Positions 35,578-59,550 of a stretch of 64,000 nucleotides of DNA are shown in pieces. Within the stretch, counting starts at the first letter, position 1. Each line of letters opens with the position of its first letter. The notes under the pieces are model-generated. The model did no database searches. It saw only the letters and a program-made list of their open reading frames with translations, and was not told the origin of the DNA. The translations under genes and the position numbers were made by a program. The stretch comes from an uncultured Candidatus Saccharibacteria bacterium (GTDB lineage: Bacteria; Patescibacteriota; Minisyncoccia; Phycocordibacterales; Phycocordibacteraceae), in the NCBI GenBank assembly GCA_964391975.1, contig CAYMNZ010000001.1, forward strand, positions 198,978-262,977, in the 5' to 3' direction.

Positions 35578-36606
35578 ATGAGTCACCAGTCCCTCTATAG
35601 GGCGTATCGTCCGCAGTCCTTCAAGGAAGTTGTGGGACAGGAGCAGGTTACGGCACCACTTGCCGAACAGATTAAAGGAAAGACGGTAGGACATGCGTAT
35701 TTGTTCGCCGGGTCTCGTGGTCTTGGAAAAACCTCTGTTGCGCGCATCTTTGCGGCTGAGCTTGGAGTCACTGAGAAGGATTTGTATGAGATTGATGCTG
35801 CAAGCAACAACAGCGTCGACATGATTCGAGAGCTGAATGCGAACGTATTTACGCTTCCCTTTGAATCTCCATACAAGCTCTACATTCTGGATGAGGTGCA
35901 CATGTTCTCGAAGGGAGCATGGAATGCGTTTTTGAAGACGCTTGAGGAGCCGCCAGCGCACGCGATGTTTGTGCTTGCGACCACCGAGCTCGATAAGGTG
36001 CCGGAGACGGTGCAGTCTCGATGCCAGGTGTTTGAGTTCCGTAAGCCATCGCGTGCCGGACTCATGAAGATTGTGTCTTCTGTTTCCAAGAAGGAAGGAT
36101 ACGAGATAGAGCCTGCTGCTGCTGATTTAATTGCGCTTCTGGCTGATGGTTCTTATCGTGATGCGCTTTCGGTGCTTGAGCGAGTGTTCGCGTCTTCTCC
36201 TGACAAGAAGGTGACTCGTGAGGAAGCTGAGAAGGCTACCGGAGCGCCAAAGCGCGTGCTGGTAACGGCTCTCGCTTCTGCATTGTCTGCTGGTTCCGTT
36301 GATGCCGCTCTCACCGCTATTCGTCGGGCAGCTTCCGAGAATGTGGATATGAAGATGTATTTGTCGCTCGTCCTTGAGTACCTGCGGAGCGTGTTGCTTG
36401 TTCGTCACGCCACTGAACTGCGCAAGGAGATTGCAGAGGAAGTAGGGGCTGATGAATACGCGGAGATAGAGAAGCTTGCCATGGATAAAGAATCCAAGCT
36501 TACTCACGCAACACTTCGTACGTTTTTGGATGCAGCAGCCCGTGTGCGCTTTGCACCAGTGCCTGCGCTTCCGCTTGAGCTTGCAGTGCTTGAGCTCTAC
36601 TCGTAA
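35578..36606 (+). CDS. dnaX: DNA polymerase III subunit gamma/tau (short form)
   Basis: YRAYRPQSFKEVVGQEQV...GHAYLFAGSRGLGKTSVARIFA...LDEVHM clamp-loader AAA+ motifs. 342 aa. Confidence 0.85.
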   Translation: MSHQSLYRAYRPQSFKEVVGQEQVTAPLAEQIKGKTVGHAYLFAGSRGLGKTSVARIFAAELGVTEKDLYEIDAASNNSVDMIRELNANVFTLPFESPYKLYILDEVHMFSKGAWNAFLKTLEEPPAHAMFVLATTELDKVPETVQSRCQVFEFRKPSRAGLMKIVSSVSKKEGYEIEPAAADLIALLADGSYRDALSVLERVFASSPDKKVTREEAEKATGAPKRVLVTALASALSAGSVDAALTAIRRAASENVDMKMYLSLVLEYLRSVLLVRHATELRKEIAEEVGADEYAEIEKLAMDKESKLTHATLRTFLDAAARVRFAPVPALPLELAVLELYS

Positions 36607-37496
36607 TGCTGACGAAAGTTACCGGACCACTCATTCTTATTGCAGCGGTAGTAGCCGTCGGGTACTCGGTATCTGAGCTCGAGCTCTTTGCTGAACCGTG
36701 TGCGGAGCCGGTGGAATACCACGTGGGCACCATAGACCCGCGCTATGGGATATCGAATGCTGAGCTTGCTGCTGATTTGGCGCAGGTAGCAGCACTGTGG
36801 AATACGGCTGCGGGGAAAACGGTGGTGACTTTCGCTGCTGATGGAGAGGTTGCAGTGAATCTTGAATACACTGAAGAGCAGGCAACGTCTGAGCTTGGAG
36901 TGGTAATCGACCAGCAGCAAGCAGATTACGATAAGGCGCAGGCGCAGTTTGAAATACTGGCAGACCAACTGGATTCTGCAAAGAATACGTATGAGCGGCT
37001 CGAAGCCTCCTTCAATGTGAAGGCGGATATGTACGAGAACGATGTTGCGTATTGGAACGCACGCGGAGGTGCGCCTCCTGCAGAGTACGAAAAGCTTCAA
37101 GCAATGCAGCGGCAGCTTGATCGGGAACAAGCTGCGCTCAACGCTCAGGCAGCAAAGGTGAACGCTGTGGTTGATGAGATGAACAACAAGGTGGATGCCT
37201 TAAACAGGATGGCGGACGCCATTAATTCTCGGGTGGATGTGTATAACGCCAACTCACACACTGAGTTCGACCAGGGCCGCTATATAGAAGATGAGAAAGG
37301 GAAGCGCATTACGATTCGGGAGTTCACCGAAGAGATTGAGCTCAAGCGTGTGCTGACGCATGAATTAGGGCATGCCATTGGTCTTAACCACGTAGAGGAC
37401 CCTGATTCCATCATGTATTCCTTTAACGCAGGGGATGAGCTGGTCCTCACCGAGGAGGATATAGCTGAGCTAAAGAACGTCTGCGAGCTTGATTAG
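36606..37496 (+). CDS. membrane-anchored matrixin-like zinc metalloprotease with coiled-coil insertion
   Basis: N-terminal TM. C-terminal HELGHAIGLNHVEDPDSIMY (HExxHxxGxxH + Met-turn). A ~150-aa Ala/Gln-rich coiled-coil segment separates the N-terminal part from the zinc motif. Confidence 0.65.
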   Translation: MLTKVTGPLILIAAVVAVGYSVSELELFAEPCAEPVEYHVGTIDPRYGISNAELAADLAQVAALWNTAAGKTVVTFAADGEVAVNLEYTEEQATSELGVVIDQQQADYDKAQAQFEILADQLDSAKNTYERLEASFNVKADMYENDVAYWNARGGAPPAEYEKLQAMQRQLDREQAALNAQAAKVNAVVDEMNNKVDALNRMADAINSRVDVYNANSHTEFDQGRYIEDEKGKRITIREFTEEIELKRVLTHELGHAIGLNHVEDPDSIMYSFNAGDELVLTEEDIAELKNVCELD

Positions 37497-37525: not shown

Positions 37526-37596
37526 TGGGGGGTCGTCTAATGGTAGGACAGCGGCCTTTGAAGCCGTGAATCTAGGTTCGATCCCTAGCCCCCCAG
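37526..37596 (+). tRNA. tRNA-Gln (anticodon TTG)
   Basis: tggggggtcgtctaatggtaggacagcggcctttgaagccgtgaatctaggttcgatccctagccccccag. U1-A72, anticodon loop CTTTGAA, G discriminator. Confidence 0.8.
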
Positions 37597-37616
37597 CAAC
37601 AGGTATACTTCTCTCA

Positions 37617-38294
37617 ATGAACCGTAAGGAGCACAACATTCCTGCGTTTGTAAAACCTCTCCAAGGTCATAATGAGCACGATCCAGAGCGTTACAGCAAA
37701 CTACTTCAAGTTGGAGACCGTGCAGACCTTGTTATAAGAGAATTGGAGTTTGAGAGAGAGTTTCCGCTTGAAAACGTATCGCTTCACGAGAAAGCAGTCC
37801 TTCTAAAGAATACCCTTGAAGAATTAGAACAAAAATACGCAATTCGCATTGCCCCAACTCGCTTTATCGTTGCAGAAAATGAAACAGGTAGGGAATCTGT
37901 ATTTGCCCTCGTAGACAATGTCACTGATTCTGAACATGTATCAACGGAGGAACAAGATGCTCTCCTGCACTCTCTTTGGAAAAATTTAATTGCGTATGTA
38001 GACGATAAGCTTTCTACAGGCGGTTATTTCTTGACTGATATTCACAGGCTCGACCAATATGAATATGGACGCACAGGAAGTGACACAGAAAATCATCTCT
38101 ACCTTGTAGACGTTGATCCCTACCTCTCAGAAGCAACACCGGAGCACCTCTACAATTTTTCAACTATGTTCTTGGAAAATATGCACATAGAACTAGACAA
38201 TGCTCCACTTACCGGCCACCCAGACCTTACAGGGGAGTTAGCAGCTCTCATAGATAAGTGCAGAGACGAAATCGTTAGGAGGCGGACGGCATAA
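37617..38294 (+). CDS. hypothetical protein (first gene of low-G+C island)
   Basis: Start trimmed to MNRKEH to clear the tRNA. AT-rich codon usage. Contains TDIHRLDQYEYG ... HLYLVDVDPY, loosely reminiscent of kinase-like catalytic/Mg loops. Unassigned. Confidence 0.5.
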   Translation: MNRKEHNIPAFVKPLQGHNEHDPERYSKLLQVGDRADLVIRELEFEREFPLENVSLHEKAVLLKNTLEELEQKYAIRIAPTRFIVAENETGRESVFALVDNVTDSEHVSTEEQDALLHSLWKNLIAYVDDKLSTGGYFLTDIHRLDQYEYGRTGSDTENHLYLVDVDPYLSEATPEHLYNFSTMFLENMHIELDNAPLTGHPDLTGELAALIDKCRDEIVRRRTA

Positions 38295-38343
38295 GGTTCC
38301 AACATCGTCCCAGACAGCCAGCCTAATTTGATATAAAAGGTAG

Positions 38344-38961
38344 ATGAACCCCATTCGCCACATCTGGTTCGACTTCAGCGACACCATCGTTGCCTTCGAC
38401 GAAGGACTCCATGACGAGCTGGTCTATGAATCCTACTCGGAGATCACTGGTAACCCCATAACCCCAGAGCTCAAGGAAGAGTTCGCGAACCTCTTTAAGG
38501 AACACGGTAGTTACACCAAAAGCTTCATTGCGCTCGGAAAGGCTCATGATTTCTGGTCCGACCGTATCAGTTCAGTTGACCCCAAAGTTTTCCTGCGCCT
38601 TACGGACCCAGAAGCTCCTCAGATCTTCCAGGAACTCAGGAAGCTAGTTCCAATATCATTGTGGTCAAACATTCACGCGAAAAAGATGTTGCCTGCACTG
38701 GGCATAGACCCCACATGGTTCACGCACATACTCGGGCCCGACGAAGTAAAGAAGCCCAAGCCAGCTCTTGATGGCTTCAACCTATTGATTGAACGATCTG
38801 GCATTCCTGCGGAAGAAATACTCTTCGTTGGAGACAGTTTGGTAAAAGAAGTACGTCCTGCGAAATCTCTTGGCATACAGGCCGGGCTCATATGGAGCGA
38901 ATCACCGGAAGCTGACTATTCCTTCAAGAACTTTATGGATATTCTTACGATACTTCAATGA
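38344..38961 (+). CDS. HAD-superfamily hydrolase-like protein
   Basis: N-terminal IWFDFSDTIV (motif I-like) and C-terminal ILFVGDSLVKEVRPAKSLG (motif IV-like). Confidence 0.55.
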   Translation: MNPIRHIWFDFSDTIVAFDEGLHDELVYESYSEITGNPITPELKEEFANLFKEHGSYTKSFIALGKAHDFWSDRISSVDPKVFLRLTDPEAPQIFQELRKLVPISLWSNIHAKKMLPALGIDPTWFTHILGPDEVKKPKPALDGFNLLIERSGIPAEEILFVGDSLVKEVRPAKSLGIQAGLIWSESPEADYSFKNFMDILTILQ

Positions 38962-39527
38962 AAGCAATCATTATCCCAGGAAACGGTGGAGGATGCCCGG
39001 AAGACAACTGGTCTCCGTATCTTGAGCGTGAGCTTCCAAAGCTCGGTATCGAAGTCATCAACCGCCAGTTTCCTGACGCCGTGATGGCACGCAAGGAATT
39101 CTGGCTTCCATTCATTACTGAACTTGGTGCGGATGAGAACACCTTACTCATAGGCCACTCCTCAGGAGCAGTAGCTGCGATGCGCTATGCAGAAGCTAAC
39201 CGCATCTTGGGTTCAGTATTGGTAGGCGTCTGCCACACCGACCTCGGATACGCTGAAGAGAAAGTGAGTGGTTACTACGATGCCCCTTGGGACTGGGAAG
39301 CTATCAGGGATAATCAGAAATGGATTATACAGTTCGCCTCTGCTGACGATCCTTTTATTCCAATAACAGAGCCCCGCTTCATACGAGATCAGCTCAAGAC
39401 TGACTATCACGAGTACGAGGACCGAGGACACTTCGGTCATGGGGCAAACCCGCAAACAGAATTCCCGGAACTCATTGAAGCCCTAAGAGAGAAGCTTGCA
39501 ACCTCCTTTCCGGAGAATAGGTTATAA
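38958..39527 (+). CDS. alpha/beta-fold serine hydrolase (YdeN/RBBP9-like)
   Basis: 189 aa. MKAIIIPGNGGG... nucleophile elbow GHSSGA. C-terminal ...HFGHG. Confidence 0.65.
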   Translation: MKAIIIPGNGGGCPEDNWSPYLERELPKLGIEVINRQFPDAVMARKEFWLPFITELGADENTLLIGHSSGAVAAMRYAEANRILGSVLVGVCHTDLGYAEEKVSGYYDAPWDWEAIRDNQKWIIQFASADDPFIPITEPRFIRDQLKTDYHEYEDRGHFGHGANPQTEFPELIEALREKLATSFPENRL

Positions 39528-39532
39528 GAGGC

Positions 39533-39847
39533 ATGTCACAAAACCCATTCCTAAACGCACTAGCCGCCCTAGGGTACATCTTGGGTGTCGCCTCCGTTAT
39601 CTACCTGGTATCCCTGTATCTTCCGAATGATAACGATGGATTCCCGGTGTTTAACTTCACCCTCTTTATCTCGCTCTTCGTCTTTTCTGCGGCGGTCATG
39701 GGCTACATCATCCTCTCCAAGCCCATAACCCTCTACCTCGACGGGCAGAAAAAGGAAGGCATCAACCTCTTCCTCGGGACTCTGGGAGCCTTCGCACTCC
39801 TTACATTCATTTTCGGGTTCCTCACCACCCTCATCCCTTTACCGTAG
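39533..39847 (+). CDS. small membrane protein (3 predicted TM)
   Basis: 104-aa hydrophobic ORF. No family recognised. Confidence 0.45.
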   Translation: MSQNPFLNALAALGYILGVASVIYLVSLYLPNDNDGFPVFNFTLFISLFVFSAAVMGYIILSKPITLYLDGQKKEGINLFLGTLGAFALLTFIFGFLTTLIPLP

Positions 39848-39863
39848 TGCTAGACTGGAGGTA

Positions 39864-40142
39864 ATGGAAGAGCGCCTCACGAAGCTTGAAGAGGACGTGC
39901 GCATCATTAAGGAGCGCAACCTCCGGGTGGAAGGCAGCAAGGCCTGGGAAACCAGCGCTACGCGCGTGCTCTCGCTTGTCATCATCACGTACGTCATCGC
40001 GACCATCGCGCTCTATGCGATAGGAAACGACAACCCACTGCGCAACGCGCTTATCCCGGCAGTTGGATTCTTCCTCTCGACCCAATCACTTCCGTTCCTT
40101 CGCCGTGCGTGGATAAAAGGGTACGAAAAGAAGCATGGCTAA
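39864..40142 (+). CDS. small membrane protein
   Basis: 92-aa ORF. N-terminal amphipathic/coiled region then two TM segments. Confidence 0.45.
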   Translation: MEERLTKLEEDVRIIKERNLRVEGSKAWETSATRVLSLVIITYVIATIALYAIGNDNPLRNALIPAVGFFLSTQSLPFLRRAWIKGYEKKHG

Positions 40143-40755
40143 GGGCATCGCGCTCGACATAGACAACGTTCTTTCCGCCACCAACCTCCACTGGGCGCGC
40201 GTACTGGCGGAGAAGTTTGGAACACCTGATGGTCTTACTCCTGAAGAGACCGTCGCCCCCTACATCCTTGCGCACCACGTACCGTACTGGCAGATTCCAG
40301 AAGCCAAGGAATGGATGGAATCAGCGCGAAAAGGCGGGGAAGTGCAGTACGATCTTCCGCTCATAGAGAACGCCAATCACATCGTAAACAAGGTACATAC
40401 AATCATTCCTATCAAGGCGTATGTAACCGCTCGTTCGGAAGTGGTACGTGAAAGGACTGAAGCGTGGTTGTGGAAACATGACTTTCCGCAAGCTCCGGTA
40501 TATCTTCGTCCACCAGGAAAAGAAAACGACCAGCCAAACATATGGAAGGCTGCTTTCCTTCCTACGCTCTGGCCGGAAGTGATAGGCATCGTCGACGACG
40601 ATCCACGCCTTATCGAATACCTCCCAGACAACTACCAAGGCACCATCTTTCTGTACAAGAATACGGAACACAAAGAAGTCACCTTCCCAGTGATACAGTG
40701 CAAGGGATGGACCGAAGTACTCGAAGAGGTCAGCAAGCGCTTCGGGACGCCATAG
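40135..40755 (+). CDS. HAD-like phosphatase / 5'-nucleotidase-like protein
   Basis: IALDIDNVL (DxDxV motif I), ...YVTARSE (motif II), ...GIVDDDPRL (motif IV). Confidence 0.55.
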   Translation: MAKGIALDIDNVLSATNLHWARVLAEKFGTPDGLTPEETVAPYILAHHVPYWQIPEAKEWMESARKGGEVQYDLPLIENANHIVNKVHTIIPIKAYVTARSEVVRERTEAWLWKHDFPQAPVYLRPPGKENDQPNIWKAAFLPTLWPEVIGIVDDDPRLIEYLPDNYQGTIFLYKNTEHKEVTFPVIQCKGWTEVLEEVSKRFGTP

Positions 40756-40762
40756 CCTCTCT

Positions 40763-41182
40763 ATGAGCGAAGATAAGCCACCGCAAGGAAAGGGGGAACT
40801 CGTGGACGTCGGAAGCGAAGTGCTTATGAACTTGCGCAACGAGGTGATGACGTTGCGTGGAAGTGCCAAGATACTCACGTCGAAGCTTGAAGAATGGAAG
40901 AAAGACGTAATACTTGGGGAGCAAGATATAGCCCACAAAGAGAGGGAACTCGAAGAAATTGAACAGAAGACAGAAGTGCCGGACATACGCACCGCGCGAG
41001 GGCAACAGAATAAGCGCAAGGCGCTCATTAAGAACCTGAGTGCAGTACGAATGCGCAGGGAACACTTACTGGGTCTTATTGAAAAGCAGCCAGCCCTTAT
41101 CGCCTCACTGCACGACCGCATAACGGAGACACAGGAGCGCCTCAACCGTCTTCAGGCAGGAAAGAATACGCAGAGTTCGTAA
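40763..41182 (+). CDS. hypothetical coiled-coil protein
   Basis: 139-aa ORF, charged/heptad-like (ERELEEIEQKTE...). Confidence 0.45.
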   Translation: MSEDKPPQGKGELVDVGSEVLMNLRNEVMTLRGSAKILTSKLEEWKKDVILGEQDIAHKERELEEIEQKTEVPDIRTARGQQNKRKALIKNLSAVRMRREHLLGLIEKQPALIASLHDRITETQERLNRLQAGKNTQSS

Positions 41183-41222
41183 TACACACATCCTTCATGC
41201 GTCTTCTGCCTATATACACACC

Positions 41223-41957
41223 ATGACTACCACCCCTTTCATGAAGGCGGGGACAGCTCTCGGGCTCTCCCTCGCTCTTCTCGTAGGTTTTGTGCCAGTG
41301 CTTCCCGCTGCGGCAGCCTATGAGGAACCTCCCATAGGATATTTTTCCTCGCATGACGACGATGAAGATGAAGACGAGGATAATGACCGGTACAGCCGTT
41401 ACTCCTCTCGCCGCACAAGCTATTCGAGCTCCATTCAGAGGAAGGTAAACAACCTTGATGACGACGAAGTGGAGAACCTCCCAATTCCTATCCTTATCGG
41501 TGTGGGGCTCAATAATATTTGGCCAAACTTCGGAGATCCTCGCGATGGAGGTGCCCGCACGCACGAAGGAGAGGACATCATGGCTCCACGTGGCGCGATT
41601 GTTTCCTCACCAACTGAGGCAGTGGTCGTGCGCACTGGCGAAGGCTCAAGTTCCGGCATCTATGTCACCACCGCTAACCCGGGAGGCGAGTCCATGAACT
41701 TCTACCACCTCGACAGCATTGCTGAAGGTATTAAGGCTGGAACGGAAGTTAAAGCAGGAGACATTCTGGGGTACGTAGGAAATACGGGGAACGCTTCAGG
41801 CGGAGCGCCGCATCTCCATTTCGAGATTCGCAAGAACCGAAGGGCACTCGACCCGTTCCCACGTCTCACCAAAGAATTCTCAAATGAAGTGCGCGTACGT
41901 GTTCTCACTGATCTTTTGAAGGAACTACAGGCTGAACTAGCGAAAAAGTTGCGCTAG
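41223..41957 (+). CDS. secreted M23-family (LytM/lysostaphin-like) metallopeptidase
   Basis: Signal peptide. Acidic repeat (DDDEDEDEDND). Catalytic HEGEDI (HxxxD) and HLHFE (HxH) motifs. Confidence 0.8.
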   Translation: MTTTPFMKAGTALGLSLALLVGFVPVLPAAAAYEEPPIGYFSSHDDDEDEDEDNDRYSRYSSRRTSYSSSIQRKVNNLDDDEVENLPIPILIGVGLNNIWPNFGDPRDGGARTHEGEDIMAPRGAIVSSPTEAVVVRTGEGSSSGIYVTTANPGGESMNFYHLDSIAEGIKAGTEVKAGDILGYVGNTGNASGGAPHLHFEIRKNRRALDPFPRLTKEFSNEVRVRVLTDLLKELQAELAKKLR

Positions 41958-42018
41958 TCTCACCAGACCTTCATGAACAATAGGGCACAGTTCATTAGTC
42001 CTCTCGAGGACGCTTCCT

Positions 42019-42288
42019 ATGGATGACTTTCTCAAAATGGATGTATTCTTCGCAATCACGACTGTGGCAGTACTTGTGCTCTCTGTATTGGTAGGCTACG
42101 TGCTCGTGCGAGTGCTCAGGATTCTCAAATCTCTCGAGCGCATTGTGCTACTCGCGGAGAAAGAAACGGAGCTCGTACGTGAAGATCTCGTTCATTTGCG
42201 GGAGAAAGTATCGAAGGAGGGGCTGAAGCTCAGGCACATTGTTGGGTTTCTGGGAGGCCTCGGGAAAAAGAGAAAATCCAATTCTTAA
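42019..42288 (+). CDS. DUF948-like small membrane/coiled-coil protein
   Basis: N-terminal TM (FFAITTVAVLVLSVLVGYVLV) followed by a short coiled coil. Layout typical of the DUF948 family that pairs with YtxH-like proteins. Confidence 0.4.
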   Translation: MDDFLKMDVFFAITTVAVLVLSVLVGYVLVRVLRILKSLERIVLLAEKETELVREDLVHLREKVSKEGLKLRHIVGFLGGLGKKRKSNS

Positions 42289-42306
42289 CTAGCTAACTAC
42301 ACACGC

Positions 42307-42723
42307 ATGGCGACACGAAAGAAAAACACTGGAGGGAAGGTGGCGGCAGGTATCGGCGCAGCAGCGCTCGCAGCTGCAGCGGCAGGAGCTGGCTATTATT
42401 TTTATGCTAGCAAGGATGCCAAGAAGCACCGCCAGGCTGCAAGCACCTGGGCCAAGGGCCTCAAGCGCGAAGCAGTGAAGCGCGCAAAAAGCCTTAAGAA
42501 GATAGACGCAAAGGCTATTGCTCGTGCGGTAGACGAAGCGGCTGAAATCTACGACGGTGTACGCGGCGTATCTGCGGCAGATCTCCGGGCTGCCACAAAG
42601 GAACTCAAGGCCAACTGGAAGAAGATGCAGGGCGAGCTCACGCCTAAGAAGCCAGCCGCTACAAAGCGCGCTACCGCAACCAAGAAGAAATCCACTGTGG
42701 CCAGTAGGAAGCGTCGTGCATAA
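42307..42723 (+). CDS. YtxH-like Lys-rich protein
   Basis: GGKVAAGIGAAALAAAAAGAGYYFYASKDAKK... glycine-zipper helix then a Lys/Ala-rich region. Confidence 0.4.
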   Translation: MATRKKNTGGKVAAGIGAAALAAAAAGAGYYFYASKDAKKHRQAASTWAKGLKREAVKRAKSLKKIDAKAIARAVDEAAEIYDGVRGVSAADLRAATKELKANWKKMQGELTPKKPAATKRATATKKKSTVASRKRRA

Positions 42724-44600: not shown

Positions 44601-45644
44601 ATGAAGCTCTATTTAGAGAACGGTTCGAGCTTCGAGGGAGAGAGTTTCGGCGCTAACGTCGCAGTCTCTGGAGAAGTGGTCTTCAACACCGGTATGGTGG
44701 GCTATGTGGAGACACTTTCCGACCCTTCGTACTCCGGTCAGATAGTTGTGCTCACCTATCCGCTCGTTGGCAACTATGGTGTGCCGAGCGAGAAGCAGTT
44801 TGAGAGCGAGAAGATTCACGCAGCAGGACTTGTGGTCTCTGAGTACTGCGACGAGTACTCTCACCATGAGGCAAAGGAGTCACTCAAGGAGTGGTTGAAG
44901 CGCTCAGGCGTCCCAGCAATCACTGGTGTGGACACCCGCGCCATCACCAAGGTGCTGCGCGAGAAGGGCGTGATGCTCGGACAGCTTGGTGGCACCAAGA
45001 AAGGGAAGTTTGTTGACTCCAACAAGGTGAATCAGGTTGCCATTGTGAGCCCCAAGAAGAAGAAAGAGTATGGAAATGGTCCGATGCGCATCGTGCTCGT
45101 TGATTGCGGCGCAAAGGAAAACATCATGCGTTCCATCTTGACTCCCGACACGACCGTCATTCGCGTGCCGTGGGATTACGATTTCACACAGGAGAAATAC
45201 GACGGCATTGTGCTCAGCAACGGTCCTGGCGACCCGGTAGAGTGCACCGCCACCGTCGAAAACGTACAGAAGGCACTCAAGGGAGATAAACCGATTCTCG
45301 GCATTTGCCTTGGCATCCAAATGCTCGCACTTGCTGCAGGAGGAAAGACCTACAAGCTCAAGTACGGACACCGCGCACAGAATCAGCCGTGTGTGGCAGG
45401 TAAGCGCTGCTACATCACGAGTCAGAATCACGGCTACGCAGTGGATGCCAAGTCACTCCCTAAAGAATGGAAGATTTGGTTCACCAACGCTAACGATGGC
45501 AGTGTTGAGGGTATCTATCACACCAAGAAGCCATTTCGCGCGGTGCAGTTCCACCCAGAAGCATGTCCGGGACCAACCGACACGAACTGGCTCTTCGATG
45601 ACTTCCTCAAGGAGGTGAAGAAAAGTAAGAAAAAGCTCGTATGA
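44601..45644 (+). CDS. carA: carbamoyl-phosphate synthase small (glutaminase) subunit
   Basis: N-terminal CPSase small domain plus class I glutamine amidotransferase (GICLGIQ..., HPE). Confidence 0.95.
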   Translation: MKLYLENGSSFEGESFGANVAVSGEVVFNTGMVGYVETLSDPSYSGQIVVLTYPLVGNYGVPSEKQFESEKIHAAGLVVSEYCDEYSHHEAKESLKEWLKRSGVPAITGVDTRAITKVLREKGVMLGQLGGTKKGKFVDSNKVNQVAIVSPKKKKEYGNGPMRIVLVDCGAKENIMRSILTPDTTVIRVPWDYDFTQEKYDGIVLSNGPGDPVECTATVENVQKALKGDKPILGICLGIQMLALAAGGKTYKLKYGHRAQNQPCVAGKRCYITSQNHGYAVDAKSLPKEWKIWFTNANDGSVEGIYHTKKPFRAVQFHPEACPGPTDTNWLFDDFLKEVKKSKKKLV

Positions 45645-48600
45645 AGCCAAAGAAAGTACTCATCCTAGGTTCTGGAGGACTCCGCATAGGTCAGGCGGGT
45701 GAGTTTGATTATTCCGGCTCCCAGGCAATTAAGGTGCTTAAAGAAGAGGGAATTCAGTCAGTACTGATTAACCCAAACATTGCGACCGTGCAGACGGATA
45801 AGGGACTCGCAGATCGCGTGTACTTCCTCCCGCTCACTGAGCATTTCGCAACGGAGGTCATCAAGAAGGAGCGCCCTGATGCCATCTTCCTTTCCTTTGG
45901 CGGACAGACGGCACTGAACCTCGGTCTCGCGCTTGAGAAGAGTGGCGTGCTTAAGAAGTATGGCGTGCGCGTGCTCGGTACCCCGGTCTCCACTATTCGC
46001 GACACCGAGGACCGTGAGCTTTTCGTAAAGAGGTTGAACCAGATACAGGTGAAGACTGCTAGGAGCAAGGCAACGGCAAATGTTGCGGAAGCGAGGAAGG
46101 CCGCAACGATGATTGGCTACCCCGTCATGGTGCGTTCAGGCTTTGCGCTTGGGGGTGAAGGCTCAGGACTGGTGCGCGATGAGAAGGAACTTGTCGACAA
46201 GCTTACCGACGTCTTCCACACCAATAAGCAGGTATTGATTGAAGAGTATCTTCTTGGATGGAAGGAAGTGGAGTACGAAGTTGTGCGCGATAAGGACGAC
46301 AACTGCATCACGGTCTGCAACATGGAGAACCTCGACCCGATGGGTGTGCACACGGGTGAATCCATTGTCGTTGCTCCATCGCAGACGCTCACCAACGACG
46401 AGTACCACATGCTCCGCGAGGTGGCGATTAAGACTATCCGACACCTGGGCATCGTGGGTGAGTGCAATATTCAGTACGCGCTTCACCCAAAGACTGGCGA
46501 CTATCGCGTGATTGAAGTGAATGCCCGACTTTCCCGCTCTTCTGCGCTTGCCTCTAAGGCCACTGGCTACCCTCTTGCTTTCGTTGCGGCAAAGCTTGCG
46601 CTCGGGCACGTGCTCCCAGAACTCAAGAACTCAGTGACGGGTACGACCACTGCCTGCTTCGAGCCGGCACTCGATTACATCGTCATCAAGATGCCGCGCT
46701 GGGACCTCGATAAATTCGGTAACGCAGCACCGCGTATTGGTACGGAGATGAAGAGTGTGGGCGAGGTCATGGCTATTGGGCGGTCCTTTGAAGAAGTGCT
46801 TCAAAAGGGTATTCGCATGCTTAACATCGGAGCAGACGGCTTTACCGCGCAGCGAAGTAAGCGCTACAAGTTTGATGACTACCTGAAGGAGATTAAGGAG
46901 CCAACCACCCGTCGCATCTTTGCAATTGCAGAGGCACTCCGGAAGGGCGTTTCGGTTGAAAAGATTCACCAGCTTTCAAATATTGATCTCTGGTTCTTGA
47001 AGAAACTTGAGCACATTGTTGAGCTTGAGAAGAAGATTAAGCGCAAACCACTCACCAAGGACCTTCTTGTTGAAGCTAAGAAGAACGGCTTCTCCGACAT
47101 TCAGCTTGCAACCATTAAAGGTAAGACTGAGGAAGCAGTTCGTACACTTCGCCGTCGTTTGAAGGTGTTCCCGGTTATCAAGCAAATCGACACACTCGCA
47201 GGCGAAGTGCCAGCCAAGACCAACTATCTGTACCTCACCTATCACGGTACTGAGGACGATGTGAAGCCGGGCAAGAAGAGCGTCATGGTGCTCGGCTCTG
47301 GTTCCTACTCCATCGGCTCTTCCGTTGAGTTCGATTGGTCGAGCGTTGAAGCACTCAAGACACTGAAGGCGAAGGGGTATGAGACCATCATGGTCAACTA
47401 CAACCCGGAGACCGTGTCGACTGACTACGACATGAGTGACCGTCTCTACTTTGATGAACTTTCCCTTGAGCGCGTGCTCGACATCGTTGGCTTTGAAAAG
47501 CCGAAGGGAACGGTAGTTTCAACTGGAGGCCAGATTCCAAACAACCTTGCGCTCAAGCTCTTTGAGAACGGCGTGAAGGTGCTGGGGACCAGCCCAAAGA
47601 ACATCAACCGCGCGGAAGACCGTCACGTCTTCTCAGCGCTTCTCGACCGTCTTGGTGTTGACCAGCCTGAATGGGCAGAACTTTCGACTCCCAAAGAGGC
47701 TGCGCGTATGGCAGCAAAGATGGGCTACCCAGTGCTTATACGCCCCTCCTACGTTCTCTCAGGGGCTGCCATGAGCGTTGCGCTCGACGAGGTCGGACTT
47801 ATCAAGTTCCTTGAGAAAGCGGTGGGGGTCTCAAGCGATCACCCGATTGTTATCTCGAAGTTCATCGAGAACGCGCGCGAGATTGAAATAGATGGTGTTG
47901 CGCAAAACGGCAAACTCAAGATTTACGCTATTACCGAGCACGTGGAGAACGCAGGCACACACTCAGGAGATGCAACCCTGGTGCTTCCAGCGCAGCGTAC
48001 TTACATCGAGACCATCAGGCGCGCAAAATCTATCACCAAGGGCATCATCAAGGAACTTAATATCACTGGGCCGTTCAACATGCAGTTCCTGGCCAAGGAC
48101 AACAAGTTGCAGGTGATTGAATGCAACGTGCGCGCCTCACGCTCCTTCCCGTTTGTTTCAAAAGTCACCGGCTACAACTTCATCGAGCTCGCCATCCAGG
48201 CAATGCTTGGGCAGGACATCACGGGTGAGTACCGCACGCTTGAGCTCGACTATGTTGCGGTGAAGTCTCCGCAGTTCTCCTATGGTCGTATTAAGGGCGC
48301 CGACCCGCTCTCGTATGTGGAAATGGCCTCGACTGGGGAAGTCGCAGCGTTTGGAGATTCCTACGCTGAGGCACTGCTGAAGTCCATGATGGCCGCAGGC
48401 TTCAAGCTCCCGAAGAAGAATGTGTTGGTCTCCCTTGGTAAGGAAGAGAACAAGATAAAGCTTCTGCCTTCAGTGGAGACGCTGCATCGCATGGGTTTCC
48501 ATATCTACGCTACGGAGCACACCGCAGATTTCCTCAAGCAGAACAACATTCCGTGCGAGCGCGTCTATAAGATTAAGAGTGGTGGAAACCCGAACGTGCT

Positions 48601-48844
48601 TACGCTCCTTGATTCCGGAAAGCTTGATTTGATTATCAACATCGCTGCGCGCGGTCTTGCACGTCCTGAGAACTCGAAGGGCTCACTCTCTGACGGCTTC
48701 ATTATTCGTCGCAAAGCGGTAGATCTCAATATTCCGCTCATCACGAACCGTCAGCTAGCGGAAGGATTCATCAACGCACTCGAGGAAATGAACGGGAAGA
48801 CAATCGAGGCGAAGGCGTGGGACGAGTACACAACGGAGGACTAG
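45641..48844 (+). CDS. carB: carbamoyl-phosphate synthase large subunit
   Basis: 1067 aa. Duplicated ATP-grasp halves (MKPKKVLILGSGGLRIGQAGEFDYSGSQA... and ...VMVLGSGSYSIGSSVEFDW...) and C-terminal MGS-like domain. Confidence 0.95.
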   Translation: MKPKKVLILGSGGLRIGQAGEFDYSGSQAIKVLKEEGIQSVLINPNIATVQTDKGLADRVYFLPLTEHFATEVIKKERPDAIFLSFGGQTALNLGLALEKSGVLKKYGVRVLGTPVSTIRDTEDRELFVKRLNQIQVKTARSKATANVAEARKAATMIGYPVMVRSGFALGGEGSGLVRDEKELVDKLTDVFHTNKQVLIEEYLLGWKEVEYEVVRDKDDNCITVCNMENLDPMGVHTGESIVVAPSQTLTNDEYHMLREVAIKTIRHLGIVGECNIQYALHPKTGDYRVIEVNARLSRSSALASKATGYPLAFVAAKLALGHVLPELKNSVTGTTTACFEPALDYIVIKMPRWDLDKFGNAAPRIGTEMKSVGEVMAIGRSFEEVLQKGIRMLNIGADGFTAQRSKRYKFDDYLKEIKEPTTRRIFAIAEALRKGVSVEKIHQLSNIDLWFLKKLEHIVELEKKIKRKPLTKDLLVEAKKNGFSDIQLATIKGKTEEAVRTLRRRLKVFPVIKQIDTLAGEVPAKTNYLYLTYHGTEDDVKPGKKSVMVLGSGSYSIGSSVEFDWSSVEALKTLKAKGYETIMVNYNPETVSTDYDMSDRLYFDELSLERVLDIVGFEKPKGTVVSTGGQIPNNLALKLFENGVKVLGTSPKNINRAEDRHVFSALLDRLGVDQPEWAELSTPKEAARMAAKMGYPVLIRPSYVLSGAAMSVALDEVGLIKFLEKAVGVSSDHPIVISKFIENAREIEIDGVAQNGKLKIYAITEHVENAGTHSGDATLVLPAQRTYIETIRRAKSITKGIIKELNITGPFNMQFLAKDNKLQVIECNVRASRSFPFVSKVTGYNFIELAIQAMLGQDITGEYRTLELDYVAVKSPQFSYGRIKGADPLSYVEMASTGEVAAFGDSYAEALLKSMMAAGFKLPKKNVLVSLGKEENKIKLLPSVETLHRMGFHIYATEHTADFLKQNNIPCERVYKIKSGGNPNVLTLLDSGKLDLIINIAARGLARPENSKGSLSDGFIIRRKAVDLNIPLITNRQLAEGFINALEEMNGKTIEAKAWDEYTTED

Positions 48845-52350: not shown

Positions 52351-53424
52351 ATGCTTCGTACGCCGTTTTTCGACCCAAATAAGAGCTACTACGAGAACTG
52401 GGAGCAGGGGCCGTTTGGTGATTTTGCTAATGGTGAAGTAGTACCGGAGGGACCTGTGCGCTTTGATTTTCTTGGGGAGAAAATTTCCTATCCAATTGGT
52501 ATTCCTGCCGGCCCGCTCCTGAACGGCCGTTTCGTTGACGCTGCGCTCGATAAGGGATGGACCGTTCCAGTGCACAAGACGGTGCGTAGCAAGACGCATC
52601 CTTGCAATGACTGGCCGAACGTTCTGGCGCTTAAGGATTTCCCAGGAGAACTTTCCATTGAACGTGCACAAGAACCATTGGTTGTGGTGAATAATTATTC
52701 TGAACCTCTTTCAATTACGAACTCGTTCGGAAACCCTTCTTATGAGCCTGAGGTATGGCAGCAGGATCTCAAGAACTCCCTGAAGCATGCGAAAGAAGGA
52801 CAACTCGTCATGTGTTCGTTTGAAGGAACAAAACGCGAAGGAATGTCTTCTGAAGACTACATACAGGAATGGGCCGAAGGTATGAAGATGGTCGCAGACA
52901 CCGGCGTAAAGATAGTTGAAGCGAACTTTAGCTGCCCGAACGAAGGAGCTGCGTCGCTCCTATGTTTTGACGTTCCGAAAGTAAAAACTGTGGTGACAGC
53001 TATAAAAGAGAAGATAGGAAATACTAAGCTCATCATCAAGATTGCCTTCTTTGAGGAAGCTGCACTCCGCGAACTCGTTACCGAAGTAGGAAACATAGTC
53101 GACGGCTTCTCAGCCATTAACACTATTGCAGCACCAGTCGTGAACGAAGATGGTTCTCAAGCTCTTCCGGGAGCTCACCGCGTAAAGAGCGGTATTTGTG
53201 GACATGCTATCAAGTGGGCAGGAATCGACATGGTGAAGCGTCTTGCAGGCTTAAGAAAGGAGCTTGGCATGACCTTCGGCATCATAGGTTGCGGAGGCGT
53301 TACGGTTCCGTCGGATTATAAGGAGTTTCGTGATGCGGGTGCTGATATCGTCATGAGCGCTACCGGTGCCATGTGGAATCCCTATCTCGCCAAGGAGATA
53401 AAGGACGCGTATCCTGACGGATGA
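52351..53424 (+). CDS. pyrD: dihydroorotate dehydrogenase (class 1-like)
   Basis: ...YPIGIPAGPLLNG...VHKTV...NFSCPNEG (class 1A-type catalytic Cys context) ...IIGCGGV... Divergent. Confidence 0.7.
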   Translation: MLRTPFFDPNKSYYENWEQGPFGDFANGEVVPEGPVRFDFLGEKISYPIGIPAGPLLNGRFVDAALDKGWTVPVHKTVRSKTHPCNDWPNVLALKDFPGELSIERAQEPLVVVNNYSEPLSITNSFGNPSYEPEVWQQDLKNSLKHAKEGQLVMCSFEGTKREGMSSEDYIQEWAEGMKMVADTGVKIVEANFSCPNEGAASLLCFDVPKVKTVVTAIKEKIGNTKLIIKIAFFEEAALRELVTEVGNIVDGFSAINTIAAPVVNEDGSQALPGAHRVKSGICGHAIKWAGIDMVKRLAGLRKELGMTFGIIGCGGVTVPSDYKEFRDAGADIVMSATGAMWNPYLAKEIKDAYPDG

Positions 53425-55446: not shown

Positions 55447-56349
55447 ATGCAGCACGTCATTGAGACTCAGCAGTTCGACCGCCCGATGCTCGAGGGGTTC
55501 TTCAAGGACGTCGATAAGCTCGTGAAGAAACACCCAAAGGATGCACTTAAGGGGAAGGTCATGGCGACCTTGTTCTACCAACCTTCGACGCGCACTCGAT
55601 TTTCTTTTGAATCCGCGATGGTGCGATTGGGAGGTTCGGTTATTGGTACAGAAAATGCCGCTGAATTTTCTTCTGCGTCAAAAGGGGAGACACTCGAGGA
55701 TTCCATTCGTATCGTGAACGGATACGCAGATGTAATTGTGTTGCGTCATCCAGAGACAGGGTCTGCGGCAAAGGCGGCTGCAGTGTCCGATGTGCCGGTG
55801 ATTAACGCTGGAGACGGAGTAGGACAACACCCTACCCAAGCCTTGCTGGATTTGTATACCATTTACAAGGAAACCGGTGGCATTGACGGAAAGACGGTTG
55901 TATTCGTTGGAGACCTTAAGCACTACCGGACAGCTCGCTCTCTTGCGTTCGTGCTTCGCTTGTTCAAGAACATCAAGATGATTTTTGTTTCTCCTGAAGA
56001 ATTGAAAATGGGAGAGGACATTAAAGAGAGTCTCACCAAGAATGGTGTTTTGTTTTCAGAGACTACTTCACTTGAAGCGGCGGTAAGGGAGGCGGACGTG
56101 CTCTATATTGGACGCATCCCCAAGGAGTATTTTGAAGATCTTGAAGAGTACAAAAAATTTAAAGGGCATTTTACCCTTACGCGCGAACTCGTGGATACGA
56201 TGAAGTCTGATGCAATTATCATGCACCCTCTTCCACGTGAGACAGAGATTCCAGTTGAGGTAGACTCGTCTCCTCATGCTCGTTACTTTGAGCAGGCCAA
56301 ATACGGCGTCTTTGTGCGCATGGCCCTGCTCCTGAAGGTTCTTCATTGA
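55447..56349 (+). CDS. pyrB: aspartate carbamoyltransferase catalytic subunit
   Basis: ...LFYQPSTRTRFSFE... (STRTR carbamoyl-phosphate motif) ...HPLP... Confidence 0.9.
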   Translation: MQHVIETQQFDRPMLEGFFKDVDKLVKKHPKDALKGKVMATLFYQPSTRTRFSFESAMVRLGGSVIGTENAAEFSSASKGETLEDSIRIVNGYADVIVLRHPETGSAAKAAAVSDVPVINAGDGVGQHPTQALLDLYTIYKETGGIDGKTVVFVGDLKHYRTARSLAFVLRLFKNIKMIFVSPEELKMGEDIKESLTKNGVLFSETTSLEAAVREADVLYIGRIPKEYFEDLEEYKKFKGHFTLTRELVDTMKSDAIIMHPLPRETEIPVEVDSSPHARYFEQAKYGVFVRMALLLKVLH

Positions 56350-56404: not shown

Positions 56405-56734
56405 ATGCCATTTCTGCACTGGATCATTACCGCAATCGCTATTCTTCTGACCGCCTACCTCCTTCCAGGAGTGGATGTGACCATCCTTGGCGCTATTGTG
56501 CTTGCCGTCGTGCTCGCGCTCATTAACATGTTCGTGAAGCCGGTTGTCGGGTTGCTTACGCTCCCAATTAACATCGTGACCCTTGGCCTGTTCTCGCTCG
56601 TTGTGAACGCACTACTCATTCTGCTTGCAGCAATGGTGGTCCCAGGCTTCACGGTGGATGGTTTCTGGCCAGCCTTCTTCTTCTCGATTGTGCTCTCGCT
56701 TATCACAGCCGTTCTCGGCATCTGGAAGAAGTAG
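56405..56734 (+). CDS. DUF360 / phage-holin-4-like four-TM membrane protein (YvlD-like)
   Basis: 109 aa, almost entirely hydrophobic with 4 TM helices. Confidence 0.6.
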   Translation: MPFLHWIITAIAILLTAYLLPGVDVTILGAIVLAVVLALINMFVKPVVGLLTLPINIVTLGLFSLVVNALLILLAAMVVPGFTVDGFWPAFFFSIVLSLITAVLGIWKK

Positions 56735-56755
56735 CAACCCGGGCTTGTTTTATCC

Positions 56756-56790
56756 GCAACGCGCTCCTCTTACGGGGCGCGTTGCTGTTA
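56756..56790 (+). terminator. putative terminator hairpin
   Basis: gcaacgcgc-(11-nt loop)-gcgcgttgc then TGTTATACT. The U-tract is weak, so it may instead be a regulatory hairpin before the ATPase gene. Confidence 0.4.
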
Positions 56791-56802
56791 TACTGAGCGA
56801 GT

Positions 56803-59550
56803 ATGCCTCCGCATGTGGAAGGTCGAAAAAACCTATCCTCTCACGAAGAGGAGCTCGCGCATCTGCGCGCCCAGGTAGAAGCAAAGGAGAAACAACTTGC
56901 TGAGATGATGCAGGATGTACCACGTGGAGAAATCATCCACGAGCGCATCATCCACCACAAAGAAACCCCTGCTGAGGAGGTTTTGCACCCGAGTTATCGC
57001 ATGTCTGACCAGGAGGCCGGAGAAATTGCGCTTAACCTTGACCCGGAAAGCGACGACGAGACCATGAACGAGCTTCGCGGCATCATGGAGGAACGGGGCA
57101 TTCACAACGCACTGAGCGTTCTTTCGAAGCTCAAGAGCCCGCACCTTGAGGACGACTTCCATCGTTTTCTCGTAGCCTACATCAACGTGGGAATGCCGAT
57201 TAAGGGTCTTGCCGAGAACCAGCCAACATGGAAAGCGCTTCACATGACGCTCTATGAGATTTCACTTCCGGAACCTAACCAGGAGGAAGCGGATAAAGAT
57301 AACCTCAAGTACAAACACTTTAAAGAGATTGTCTCCAAGATGGAGCAGTTTTATGCCGGCATGATGTCGGTGGAGCAGGCGTACCATGGTGAGCCGCCGT
57401 ACTTCTCACTTGAACTCTCCGTGCCCGTCGATCGTCCGCACCTCCAGTTCTTTGCTGCAATTCCAAACGGGCGCACTAACATGTTTGAGAAGCAGATTCT
57501 CGCCATCTTCCCGAACGCGGTCATCATCCAACAGCCTAACGACTACAATATCTTTGCGCAGGATGGTACCGCGGTGGGTTCAGTTGCAAAACTTGCTGAC
57601 AAATCTGCCCTCTCTTTGAAAGATTTTGGGGAATTTGATTACGATCCAATTAACTCCATCTTGAACGCCTTCGCCAAGATTGAAAACGAAGGAGAAGGGG
57701 CTTCGCTTCAAATTATCTTCAGGCCCAGAGGAGATAAGTATGTTCGTCATTTCCGTCGCATTCTCTACAACCTCAGGCGCGGCATGCCTCGAATCCGCGC
57801 GCTTTCGCTTCCAGAGCACGTGCTTGGAGAGTTTGCGCACGACATTGAGAGCGCACTACTTGATCTAAAGGCAGACAAGGAGAATCTTACCCACAACGAG
57901 ACGACTATTAAATCAGTGGAGGCGAAGATTGCCGCTCCGGTAGTCGACGTCACCATGCGTCTGGCAGTGTCTTCGCCCGATCCTATTAAGGCCAATCAGG
58001 TGCTTGGTGAACTTGAATCCTCCTTCAACCAGTTCGAGGCGCCTCAGGGCAACCGTGTCGAATGGAAGCGCATGAAGGGCGGGGAAGAGCGCAAGTTCTT
58101 CCGCAACTTCTCTTTCCGTCTTTTCTCGCACGAGAACGCGATGCAGCTCTCACTTCGCGAGCTCACAACGATGTACCACTTCCCACCGAAGGGTATCGAT
58201 TCCTCTCCTCACCTCAAGCAGTCTCGCTTCACCGCAGCAGCGGCTCCTATCGGACTTGAATCCAAAGGCATTCACCTTGGCAGCAACAGCTTCCGTGGTG
58301 CGAAGTCGGAGATTTATATGGATGCTCAGGACAGACTTCGCCACCTCTACGTCATTGGACAGACCGGTACCGGAAAGACCGGATTCTTGCGTACGCTTAT
58401 TGAGCAGGACATCAAGAACGGTGAGGGGGTGTGCTTCATCGATCCACACGGCAACGACGTGCTTGAAGTGCTCGCTACCGTTCCGCCAGAGCGTTACAAC
58501 GACGTCATCTACTTTGACCCCGCCTACATCGACCGTCCGTATGGCCTCAACATGCTTGAGTATGACGCTTCTAAACCTGAGCAGAAGTCCTTCATCGTCA
58601 ACGAGCTTCTCATGATTTTCCGTCAGCTCTACGGCGACGTTCCAGAATCCATGGGCCCGGCTTTCGAGCAGTACTTCCGTAACGCCACCCAGCTTGTGAT
58701 GGAAGACCCAGAGTCAGGCTCCACCATGCTTGATATCTCACGCGTGCTCTCTAACTCTGAGTTCCGTTACCGCAAACTTGCGAAGAGTAACAACCTTGTG
58801 GTGAACCAGTTCTGGGAGGAGATTGCCACCAAGGCAGAAGGAGAGGCAAGTCTCCAGAATATTGTGCCGTACATCACCAACAAATTCGATGAGTTTATCG
58901 CCAACGACTTCATGCGTCCCATCATGGGTCAGCAGGAATCCTCGTTCAACTTCCGTGAAATCATGGACAACAAGAAGATTCTTCTGGTGAACCTCTCGAA
59001 GGGTCGTCTTGGTGAGCGCAACGCTAACCTTCTTGGTCTCATTATCGTCGGCAAACTCTTTATGTCCGCGCTCGGTCGTGCCGATAATCCACGTGCTGAT
59101 TTCCCACCGTTCTATCTCTACATCGACGAGTTCCAGAACATCACCACCAAGTCTATTCCAGGCATTCTTTCTGAAGCTCGTAAGTACAAGCTCTCCATGA
59201 CCATTGCGCACCAGTTCTTGAAGCAAGTGGATGAAAAGATTCGCGATGCTGTCTTCGGTAACGTTGGTTCTATGGCCATCTTCCGTGTGGGTGAAGAAGA
59301 TGGAGAGTTCTTTGCTAAGCAGTTTGCACCTGTGTTCTCTGCGCTTGATTTCGTGAACATCGAGAACCGCAATGCCTACGTGCGCCTCCTCTCTAAAGGG
59401 GTGCCGCAGAAGCCGTTTAACATCAAAACGCGGGATCTCTCTCCAGGCAATCCGAGCCAAATTGACGATCTACGCCAGCTTTCCTACCTGACCTACGGAC
59501 GCGATAGGGCCACGGTTGAAGCAACTATAAGGTCGCGATATCTTAGTTAG
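56803..59550 (+). CDS. VirD4/TraG/TrwB-like (type IV coupling protein-type) P-loop ATPase with long soluble N-terminal domain, no TM anchor
   Basis: 915 aa. Walker A LYVIGQTGTGKTGFL. IDPHGNDV. Walker B PFYLYIDEFQNITT. ...ARKYKLSMTIAHQFLKQV...NVGSMAIFRVGEEDGEFF pattern matches the T4CP all-alpha/ATPase layout. The first ~480 aa are unrelated soluble sequence. Confidence 0.65.
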   Translation: MPPHVEGRKNLSSHEEELAHLRAQVEAKEKQLAEMMQDVPRGEIIHERIIHHKETPAEEVLHPSYRMSDQEAGEIALNLDPESDDETMNELRGIMEERGIHNALSVLSKLKSPHLEDDFHRFLVAYINVGMPIKGLAENQPTWKALHMTLYEISLPEPNQEEADKDNLKYKHFKEIVSKMEQFYAGMMSVEQAYHGEPPYFSLELSVPVDRPHLQFFAAIPNGRTNMFEKQILAIFPNAVIIQQPNDYNIFAQDGTAVGSVAKLADKSALSLKDFGEFDYDPINSILNAFAKIENEGEGASLQIIFRPRGDKYVRHFRRILYNLRRGMPRIRALSLPEHVLGEFAHDIESALLDLKADKENLTHNETTIKSVEAKIAAPVVDVTMRLAVSSPDPIKANQVLGELESSFNQFEAPQGNRVEWKRMKGGEERKFFRNFSFRLFSHENAMQLSLRELTTMYHFPPKGIDSSPHLKQSRFTAAAAPIGLESKGIHLGSNSFRGAKSEIYMDAQDRLRHLYVIGQTGTGKTGFLRTLIEQDIKNGEGVCFIDPHGNDVLEVLATVPPERYNDVIYFDPAYIDRPYGLNMLEYDASKPEQKSFIVNELLMIFRQLYGDVPESMGPAFEQYFRNATQLVMEDPESGSTMLDISRVLSNSEFRYRKLAKSNNLVVNQFWEEIATKAEGEASLQNIVPYITNKFDEFIANDFMRPIMGQQESSFNFREIMDNKKILLVNLSKGRLGERNANLLGLIIVGKLFMSALGRADNPRADFPPFYLYIDEFQNITTKSIPGILSEARKYKLSMTIAHQFLKQVDEKIRDAVFGNVGSMAIFRVGEEDGEFFAKQFAPVFSALDFVNIENRNAYVRLLSKGVPQKPFNIKTRDLSPGNPSQIDDLRQLSYLTYGRDRATVEATIRSRYLS

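Follow-up and report, generated by a model that had tools for sequence, protein, structure and literature searches.

Background

Islands that target transfer RNA (tRNA) genes consist of G+C-poor foreign DNA that starts at the 3' end of a tRNA gene, and tyrosine integrases are their usual enzymes (Islander, PMC4383910). Hotspots of horizontal gene transfer (HGT) flanked by core genes are single intervals whose borders are conserved and whose gene sets differ, with mobility genes in only some instances (Oliveira, Touchon and Rocha 2017, PMC5635113). Genomic islands that carry restriction-modification (R-M) genes have already been reported in Patescibacteria (PMC12455944); the terms tRNA, hotspot and integrase do not turn up in a search of its full text. 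In this report, we analyze a stretch of 64,000 nucleotides from an uncultured Candidatus Saccharibacteria bacterium (hereafter, the window; 53.1% G+C over 64 kb), for which an initial annotation, made by eye, had proposed an island of about 4.7 kb with low G+C content (positions 37526-42300) integrated next to a tRNA-Gln gene.

The feature is of a known kind and is much smaller than was proposed. We consider it likely that the 3' end of tRNA-Gln is a hotspot shared across a clade, that in the window it has received one gene by horizontal transfer (g1, which touches the tRNA) and has since lost the recombinase and the attachment-site (att) scar, and that the downstream genes (g2 to g10) are residents. 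As in Islander-type islands, G+C-poor and presumably foreign DNA starts at the 3' end of a tRNA gene, and relatives show recombinase genes and displaced tRNA 3' fragments at the same tRNA. Unlike such islands, the window lacks an integrase and a displaced tRNA fragment and has a single cargo gene, and the recombinases in the relatives are large serine recombinases rather than tyrosine integrases. The site resembles core-flanked HGT hotspots in having conserved borders around one interval with differing contents, and in the occurrence of mobility genes in only some instances. It differs in that the genomes are metagenome-assembled genomes (MAGs) of uncultured Patescibacteria, and in that the right core flank, gene g3, is common to only three genomes and is lost in farther relatives. 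In contrast to the R-M islands of Patescibacteria, the site in the window has no R-M genes.

The island as proposed matters little: of its ten genes, nine are ordinary residents, and hotspots beside tRNA genes are already well established. The locus instead shows, cleanly and with base precision, a hotspot of integration and gene turnover that is conserved at tRNA-Gln in many uncultured Patescibacteria species, and the site could be used as a landmark when mobile DNA is sought in these reduced genomes. The most novel leads are an AT-shifted kinase-like family, to which g1 belongs, and the serine recombinases that abut the tRNA.

Results and discussion

Conserved gene order ends at the last base of tRNA-Gln

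The tRNA-Gln(UUG) gene (37526-37597, plus strand) is predicted by ARAGORN and matches Rfam family RF00005 with 63 bits, as the initial annotation had recognized (anticodon TTG in DNA letters). To its left lies a conserved core block that ends with the genes for DnaX (35578-36606, plus strand) and an M10-like metallopeptidase (36606-37496, plus strand). Both were identified with Pfam, whose domain calls were judged against gathering scores. With DnaX as anchor, relatives were found among MAGs labelled Patescibacteria, Paceibacterota or Parcubacteria. The scan of the genome collection returned 80 loci, 48 of which were analyzed (L015 to L062), and the comparison sample amounts to about 45 related species. 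In 42 of these 48 loci, tRNA-Gln follows DnaX on the same strand, and all 42 keep the upstream order (TopA-DprA)-SerS-hyp272-Dus-DnaX-(M10)-tRNA-Gln, down to about 45% DnaX identity. The order SerS-hyp272-Dus-DnaX-(M10)-tRNA-Gln is found in about 40 related species.

Colinearity with the three closest relatives was measured by using blastn. These relatives are L015 (96% DnaX identity and 85% nucleotide identity), L029 (83% and 74%) and L016 (82% and 73%). The colinear alignment starts at about 25.9 kb of the window with L015 and L029, and at 34.6 kb with L016, where the L016 contig begins. It ends at 37597 with L015 and L029 and at 37599 with L016, no more than 2 nucleotides from the last base of the tRNA in any of the three. 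The tRNA-Gln sequence is identical in the window and L015, and the first 60 nucleotides past it are unrelated among the window and the three relatives. The 3' end of the tRNA gene is therefore a synteny breakpoint and the boundary of the hotspot, and the DNA beyond position 37597 begins where a tRNA-targeted island is expected to begin, at or inside the 3' portion of such a gene (tRNA or tmRNA).

One explanation for such a breakpoint is an artefact of assembly or binning, in which two genomes were joined chimerically at a common tRNA sequence. Four Logan contigs from the same organism (L010 to L013) do end inside tRNA-Gln, near the anticodon arm (window positions 37560-37562), which indicates that assembly graphs branch there; co-occurring relatives with the same tRNA sequence are probably the cause. 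However, seven contigs, drawn from independent assemblies by JGI, ENA and Logan, span the junction with 99.9-100% identity, including one of 578 kb and one of 742 kb, and we find a chimera scarcely credible. Over its whole length, the window matches a part of a 742-kb metagenomic contig with 100% identity. Gene lengths differ among the contigs of this species, and strain variation was rejected as the reason: because blastn shows DNA identity of 99.9-100%, these differences result from gene calling only.

The low G+C content belongs to a single gene

The initial annotation had estimated a G+C content in the mid-40s to about 50% for the island and in the mid- to upper 50s for its flanks. The computed difference is smaller, with 50.3% in 37526-42300 versus 53.1% in each equal-sized flank, and it is concentrated in one place. 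Positions 37598-38343 have 43.3% G+C, the lowest value of any 746-nucleotide stretch in the 64 kb, and 400-nucleotide windows within this segment go down to G+C fractions of 0.405-0.42. The remainder, 38344-42300, has 51.4% G+C, which lies at the 20th percentile among windows of the same size and is not unusual.

Codon composition gives the same picture. We calculated z-scores for G+C content at third codon positions (GC3) by a bootstrap with the pooled codons of the window as reference. The gene g1 (37617-38294, plus strand; 43% G+C) has a GC3 of 0.385 and a z-score of -6.0, and the GC3 of g2 to g10 is normal (0.52-0.72, with z-scores from -1.8 to +2.7). Since the G+C deficit is gone once g1 is removed and the GC3 of the other genes is normal, the signal that suggested an island comes from one gene, and nine of the ten genes are host-like. 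A composition shift across the island, of the kind that Islander-type tests look for, is absent from 37526-42300 except in 37598-38343. This segment is the sole compositionally deviant part of the proposed island and has no counterpart at the site in the 42 relatives, and we regard it as the candidate inserted DNA. More generally, an impression of low G+C content gained by eye over several kilobases can come from a single gene.

Relatives carry unrelated cargo and marks of mobility at the same site

To the right of tRNA-Gln, the relatives have little in common. When their downstream open reading frames (ORFs) were grouped by all-against-all clustering, almost all were singletons. In the two closest relatives, the DNA past tRNA-Gln carries R-M genes with low G+C content. 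In L015, a gene for an N6_N4 DNA methyltransferase (689 amino acids) is followed by one for a ResIII-family protein (703 amino acids) and then by the end of the contig, and this cargo has 42-44% G+C versus 54% upstream. In L016, a Ser_hydrolase paralogue and an ortholog of g3 (66% identical) come almost directly after tRNA-Gln. The same interval is thus occupied by unrelated gene sets, and in some genomes it also contains mobility markers, as is characteristic of core-flanked HGT hotspots.

Among these markers are genes for large serine recombinases (Resolvase, Recombinase and Zn_ribbon_recom domains; 514-539 amino acids) that abut or overlap tRNA-Gln on the opposite strand in three relatives (L028:11834-13378, L039:11195-12814 and L058:8624-10183, all on the minus strand). 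The three proteins are 37-50% identical to one another. Their ORFs run into tRNA-Gln and terminate inside or beyond it in antisense direction, so that the tRNA gene itself codes for the final residues of these proteins. Each of the three contigs stops about 0.3-0.6 kb past the recombinase gene. A fourth member of this recombinase family, in L048, does not adjoin the tRNA.

Fragments of the tRNA-Gln 3' end lie just downstream of the gene in four other relatives. In L020 (8340-8494) and L021 (12030-12185), the complete tRNA-Gln is followed by 28 nucleotides and then by a copy of about 55 nucleotides of its 3' part, from the anticodon arm to the acceptor end. The variable loop of this fragment is unlike that of the host tRNA-Gln and resembles that of tRNA-Gln in L024, and the fragment looks like a scar of integration or excision. 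In L032 and L036, the terminal 13-16 nucleotides of tRNA-Gln are repeated downstream. A further relative, L037, has two different tRNA-Gln(ttg) genes 334 nucleotides apart downstream of DnaX (5670-6076).

The breakpoint, the R-M cargo, the serine recombinases and the tRNA fragments together point to a hotspot of site-specific integration and gene turnover. We propose that the 3' end of tRNA-Gln(UUG) is its fixed left edge across this Paceibacterota clade, and that each lineage carries different and often G+C-poor cargo to the right. In the window, the slot would hold only about 0.75 kb (37598-38343) with the single gene g1, which may have arrived by horizontal transfer at tRNA-Gln. The agents could be site-specific recombinases that target the tRNA gene, for which the large serine recombinases at the site in relatives are candidates, and the tRNA-Gln fragments in relatives would be footprints of integration. 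After integration, everything except the cargo gene g1 would have been lost.

A large rearrangement with one endpoint at the tRNA was also considered and is disfavored. CarA-CarB, which lies 7 kb after tRNA-Gln in the window (44601-48844), is 3.4-6.3 kb downstream of it in L020 and L021, and L016 and L029 keep g3 downstream. Because these genes have been kept, local turnover is favored.

g1 represents an unannotated family with a predicted kinase-like fold

A scan for promoters and terminators around g1 gave no excess over chance. The 225-amino-acid protein encoded by g1 matched only itself in a word-indexed search. An exhaustive search with HMMER found 299 homologues (E ≤ 1e-3), which are mostly 220-260 amino acids long, the best being 38% identical. 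The family is characterized by the motif FLxDI....QYVYGK...LYLVDxDP. Among 40 aligned sequences, D141, G151 and D165 are invariant, and Q147 is invariant or nearly so. The g1 protein has no match in Pfam, NCBIfam, PADLOC, PHROGs or the PDB sequences. A profile of the family reached no better than E = 0.095 against the PDB sequences, and a comparison of 39 aligned homologues with NCBIfam and Pfam gave only isolated matches of single members to unrelated, non-kinase families. For the family as a whole, PADLOC and PHROGs likewise returned nothing consistent.

Structure prediction suggests what kind of protein this might be. A model calculated by AlphaFold2 (AF2) with the alignment has a predicted local distance difference test (pLDDT) score of 93.8; a single-sequence model with a pLDDT of 47 was not used. 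Foldseek searches of PDB and BFVD with the former model returned nearly exclusively kinases (Bud32, VRK1, RIO2, PI4K, WbdD and giant-virus kinases), with probabilities up to 0.99 and weak scores (E ≥ 1e-3, TM score about 0.4). The model therefore suggests a minimal kinase-like fold, and g1 might be an active kinase. D141 and D165 would then be putative equivalents of the aspartates of the HRD and DFG motifs of kinases. Like minimal protein-kinase-like proteins of the Bud32, RIO and VRK types, g1 combines a small size with a predicted bilobal fold, and its conserved D...Q and DxD seem to be placed where a catalytic loop and a metal-binding motif would be expected. Unlike these proteins, g1 has no sequence match to a kinase family and only weak structural scores, and an arginine takes the place of the usual N-lobe lysine candidate.

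Evidence for and against acquisition of g1 at tRNA-Gln

In the 42 relatives in which tRNA-Gln comes after DnaX on the plus strand, no homologue of g1 follows the tRNA. The best homologue, P0002, occurs in the MAG of L015, the closest relative, at another locus about 0.9 kb from tRNA-Cys. In one contig (L178), it stands beside terminase-like, ParB-methylase and ResIII genes, which are absent from the otherwise syntenic contig L179.

Several observations weigh against the acquisition of g1 by transfer at this site. Within the window, domain scans and repeat searches found no integrase or transposase and no attachment-site repeat, as the initial annotation had noted by eye. The search it suggested for a direct repeat of the tRNA 3' end also came back empty: even when up to 3 mismatches are allowed, the 64-kb window contains no second copy of the 22-nucleotide 3' end. 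Shorter repeats of the tRNA-Gln end are also absent from the 20 kb around the tRNA, and the search for direct and inverted repeats in the window found none that is meaningful. Since the window has neither a recombinase nor an att-like repeat nor a tRNA fragment, the insertion of g1 is deduced from its position and composition. Also, the contigs of the same species all carry g1 and are nearly identical, and no presence/absence polymorphism was observed. Its relatives are G+C-poor compared with their neighbors in four of four other contexts (GC3 of 0.29-0.395 versus 0.39-0.70), namely, at L178:8001-8699 and L179:7629-8327 (0.36 each), L184:109-792 (0.395) and L183:1086-1766 (0.29). Low G+C content could therefore be a trait of the family rather than the mark of a recent arrival. 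In addition, the L015 contig stops 4.3 kb past tRNA-Gln, so that the comparison with L015 reaches no farther than its R-M genes. Finally, L016 and L029 have a Ser_hydrolase paralogue instead of g2 beside g3, so g3, and not g2, could mark the right edge of the slot, which would then span 37598-38957.

The same observations lend some support to an explanation without any insertion in the lineage of the window, in which g1 is a long-standing resident of an intrinsically AT-rich family, and only the relatives gained DNA or were rearranged. The low GC3 in all four contexts, the lack of an att repeat or recombinase in the window and the fixation of g1 in the same-species contigs would all be expected of such a resident. 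However, a g1 homologue follows tRNA-Gln in none of the 42 relatives, and the best homologue is just 38% identical and resides elsewhere, near tRNA-Cys. Moreover, the GC3 of a vertically inherited gene should equilibrate, and a family that is consistently AT-shifted fits repeated transfer better. We regard a resident g1 as unlikely and prefer its acquisition at the tRNA-Gln hotspot.

The initial annotation had viewed the location beside a tRNA as indicative of horizontal acquisition. This idea stands for the site, which is an insertion hotspot in relatives, but in the window only g1 looks foreign. The family is worth flagging as unannotated, kinase-like and of unusual G+C content that is low independently of the host. 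A broader proposal, about which we are doubtful, is that g1 and its homologues are minimal (about 225 amino acids) kinase-like proteins of an undescribed family, consistently AT-shifted relative to their Patescibacteria hosts, that move as single-gene cargo at tRNA-flanking hotspots and perhaps act in host-symbiont or phage-defense interactions, and that the tRNA-Gln site is serviced by the large serine recombinases that read into the tRNA.

The remaining genes of the proposed island are residents

The ten genes after tRNA-Gln are co-directional and tightly packed, and none of the ten proteins has an integrase, recombinase or transposase domain in Pfam or NCBIfam. The gene g2 (38344-38961, plus strand), the first of the inherited block, encodes a HAD-family hydrolase (PF00702, 44.4 bits versus a cutoff of 26.4; also PF13419) and has a GC3 of 0.563 (z = -0.5); its matches to NCBIfam HAD subfamilies are all below the cutoffs. 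A second HAD-like hydrolase had been suggested, for g6 (40135-40755, plus strand), which does not reach the Pfam gathering score of the HAD superfamily and has only a sub-threshold match to LNS2 (PF24694, 22.1 bits versus 27.7). The YdeN-type serine hydrolase and the M23 peptidase were both correctly identified. They correspond to g3 (38958-39527, plus strand; PF06821, 32.6 bits versus a cutoff of 22) and g8 (41223-41957, plus strand; Peptidase_M23, 76.7 bits versus a cutoff of 28.7). Host-like composition is found in the membrane-protein genes g4 (39533-39847, plus strand) and g5 (39864-40142, plus strand) and in the coiled-coil gene g7 (40763-41182, plus strand). The last two genes encode small proteins, one with a hydrophobic N-terminal stretch (g9, 42019-42288, plus strand) and one rich in lysine and alanine (g10, 42307-42723, plus strand). 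Neither has a Pfam match at E ≤ 0.01 or a meaningful NCBIfam match, and the earlier description of g9 and g10 as a DUF948/YtxH-like pair is therefore unsupported.

Most of the block recurs elsewhere. A 4-kb contig (L180) from a relative with 63% G+C carries g2 (63% identical), g3 (78%), g4 (65%), a gene for 318 amino acids, g6 (60%), a gene for 130 amino acids and g8 (61%) in the order of the window, preceded by a membrane-protein gene and not by a tRNA or g1. For g3, 2,151 homologues were found at E ≤ 1e-10, many of them 65-78% identical and from Paceibacterota. Besides that of L016, its orthologs downstream of tRNA-Gln include those of L029 (71%; seen in L175, a contig of the L029 genome) and L018 (55%). 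The gene follows variable DNA in L029/L175, follows tRNA-Gln closely in L016 and occupies different contexts in other genomes. Homologues of g4 lie just after tRNA-Gln in L021 (51%) and L022 (46%), and homologues of g9 and g10 (41% and 64%) lie 2 kb after it in L024.

These data bear on the proposal that all of 37526-42300 is one old, decayed island at tRNA-Gln that lost its integrase and att repeat and whose composition was ameliorated. Such an island would account for the position beside the tRNA, the co-directional and tightly packed genes, the slightly lower overall G+C content and the fact that, in most relatives, the 10 kb downstream of tRNA-Gln lack most genes of the block. However, the deficit is due to g1, and the synteny of g2 to g8 with L180 comes with core-like divergence and without an adjoining tRNA. 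Also, g3 is widespread in the phylum and stands to the right of variable DNA in L029, and position 42300 is not marked as a boundary, given that g9 and g10 have homologues downstream of tRNA-Gln in L024 as well. Neither of the two observations that the initial annotation had named as refuting an island, a lack of significant deviation in composition and synteny in relatives, applies to g1, which is absent from the site in all relatives; both apply to 38344-42300, with g2 to g8 syntenic in L180 and g3 present in L016 and L029. The proposal is largely refuted, and we consider it quite improbable. Because g2 to g8 show core-like divergence, keep their order across very different G+C contents and have normal codon composition, they are best read as inherited and do not look like a transferred unit. 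We conclude that g2 to g10 are resident, vertically inherited accessory or housekeeping genes.

Observations farther downstream

The position of CarA-CarB varies. In L096, these genes (from position 2886) are located between Dus and DnaX, and in most relatives they are absent within 10 kb. In the window, a PyrD-like gene (52351-53424) and PyrB (55447-56349) lie farther downstream than CarA-CarB. Beyond them, 19 kb downstream of tRNA-Gln, a gene for 109 amino acids and a gene for a HerA/TraG/FtsK-like ATPase of 915 amino acids (56405-59550) form a pair that recurs a few kilobases downstream of tRNA-Gln in L024, L025, L027 and L030, which suggests that another variable stretch is followed by another conserved anchor.

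Two ORFs near the right end of the window, at 59553-60896 (447 amino acids) and 61498-63573 (691 amino acids), have GC3 z-scores of -6.2 and -8.5, which are among the three lowest in the window, and contain no Pfam domain. The surrounding region, 52-64 kb, is about 3 points lower in G+C content than the rest of the window. In the L029 genome, the g3 ortholog is followed by a single ORF of 5,405 residues (L175:10854-20561+) with no Pfam match on record, and at the position of this giant ORF, L016 has an open-ended gene for a secreted repeat protein of at least 347 amino acids.

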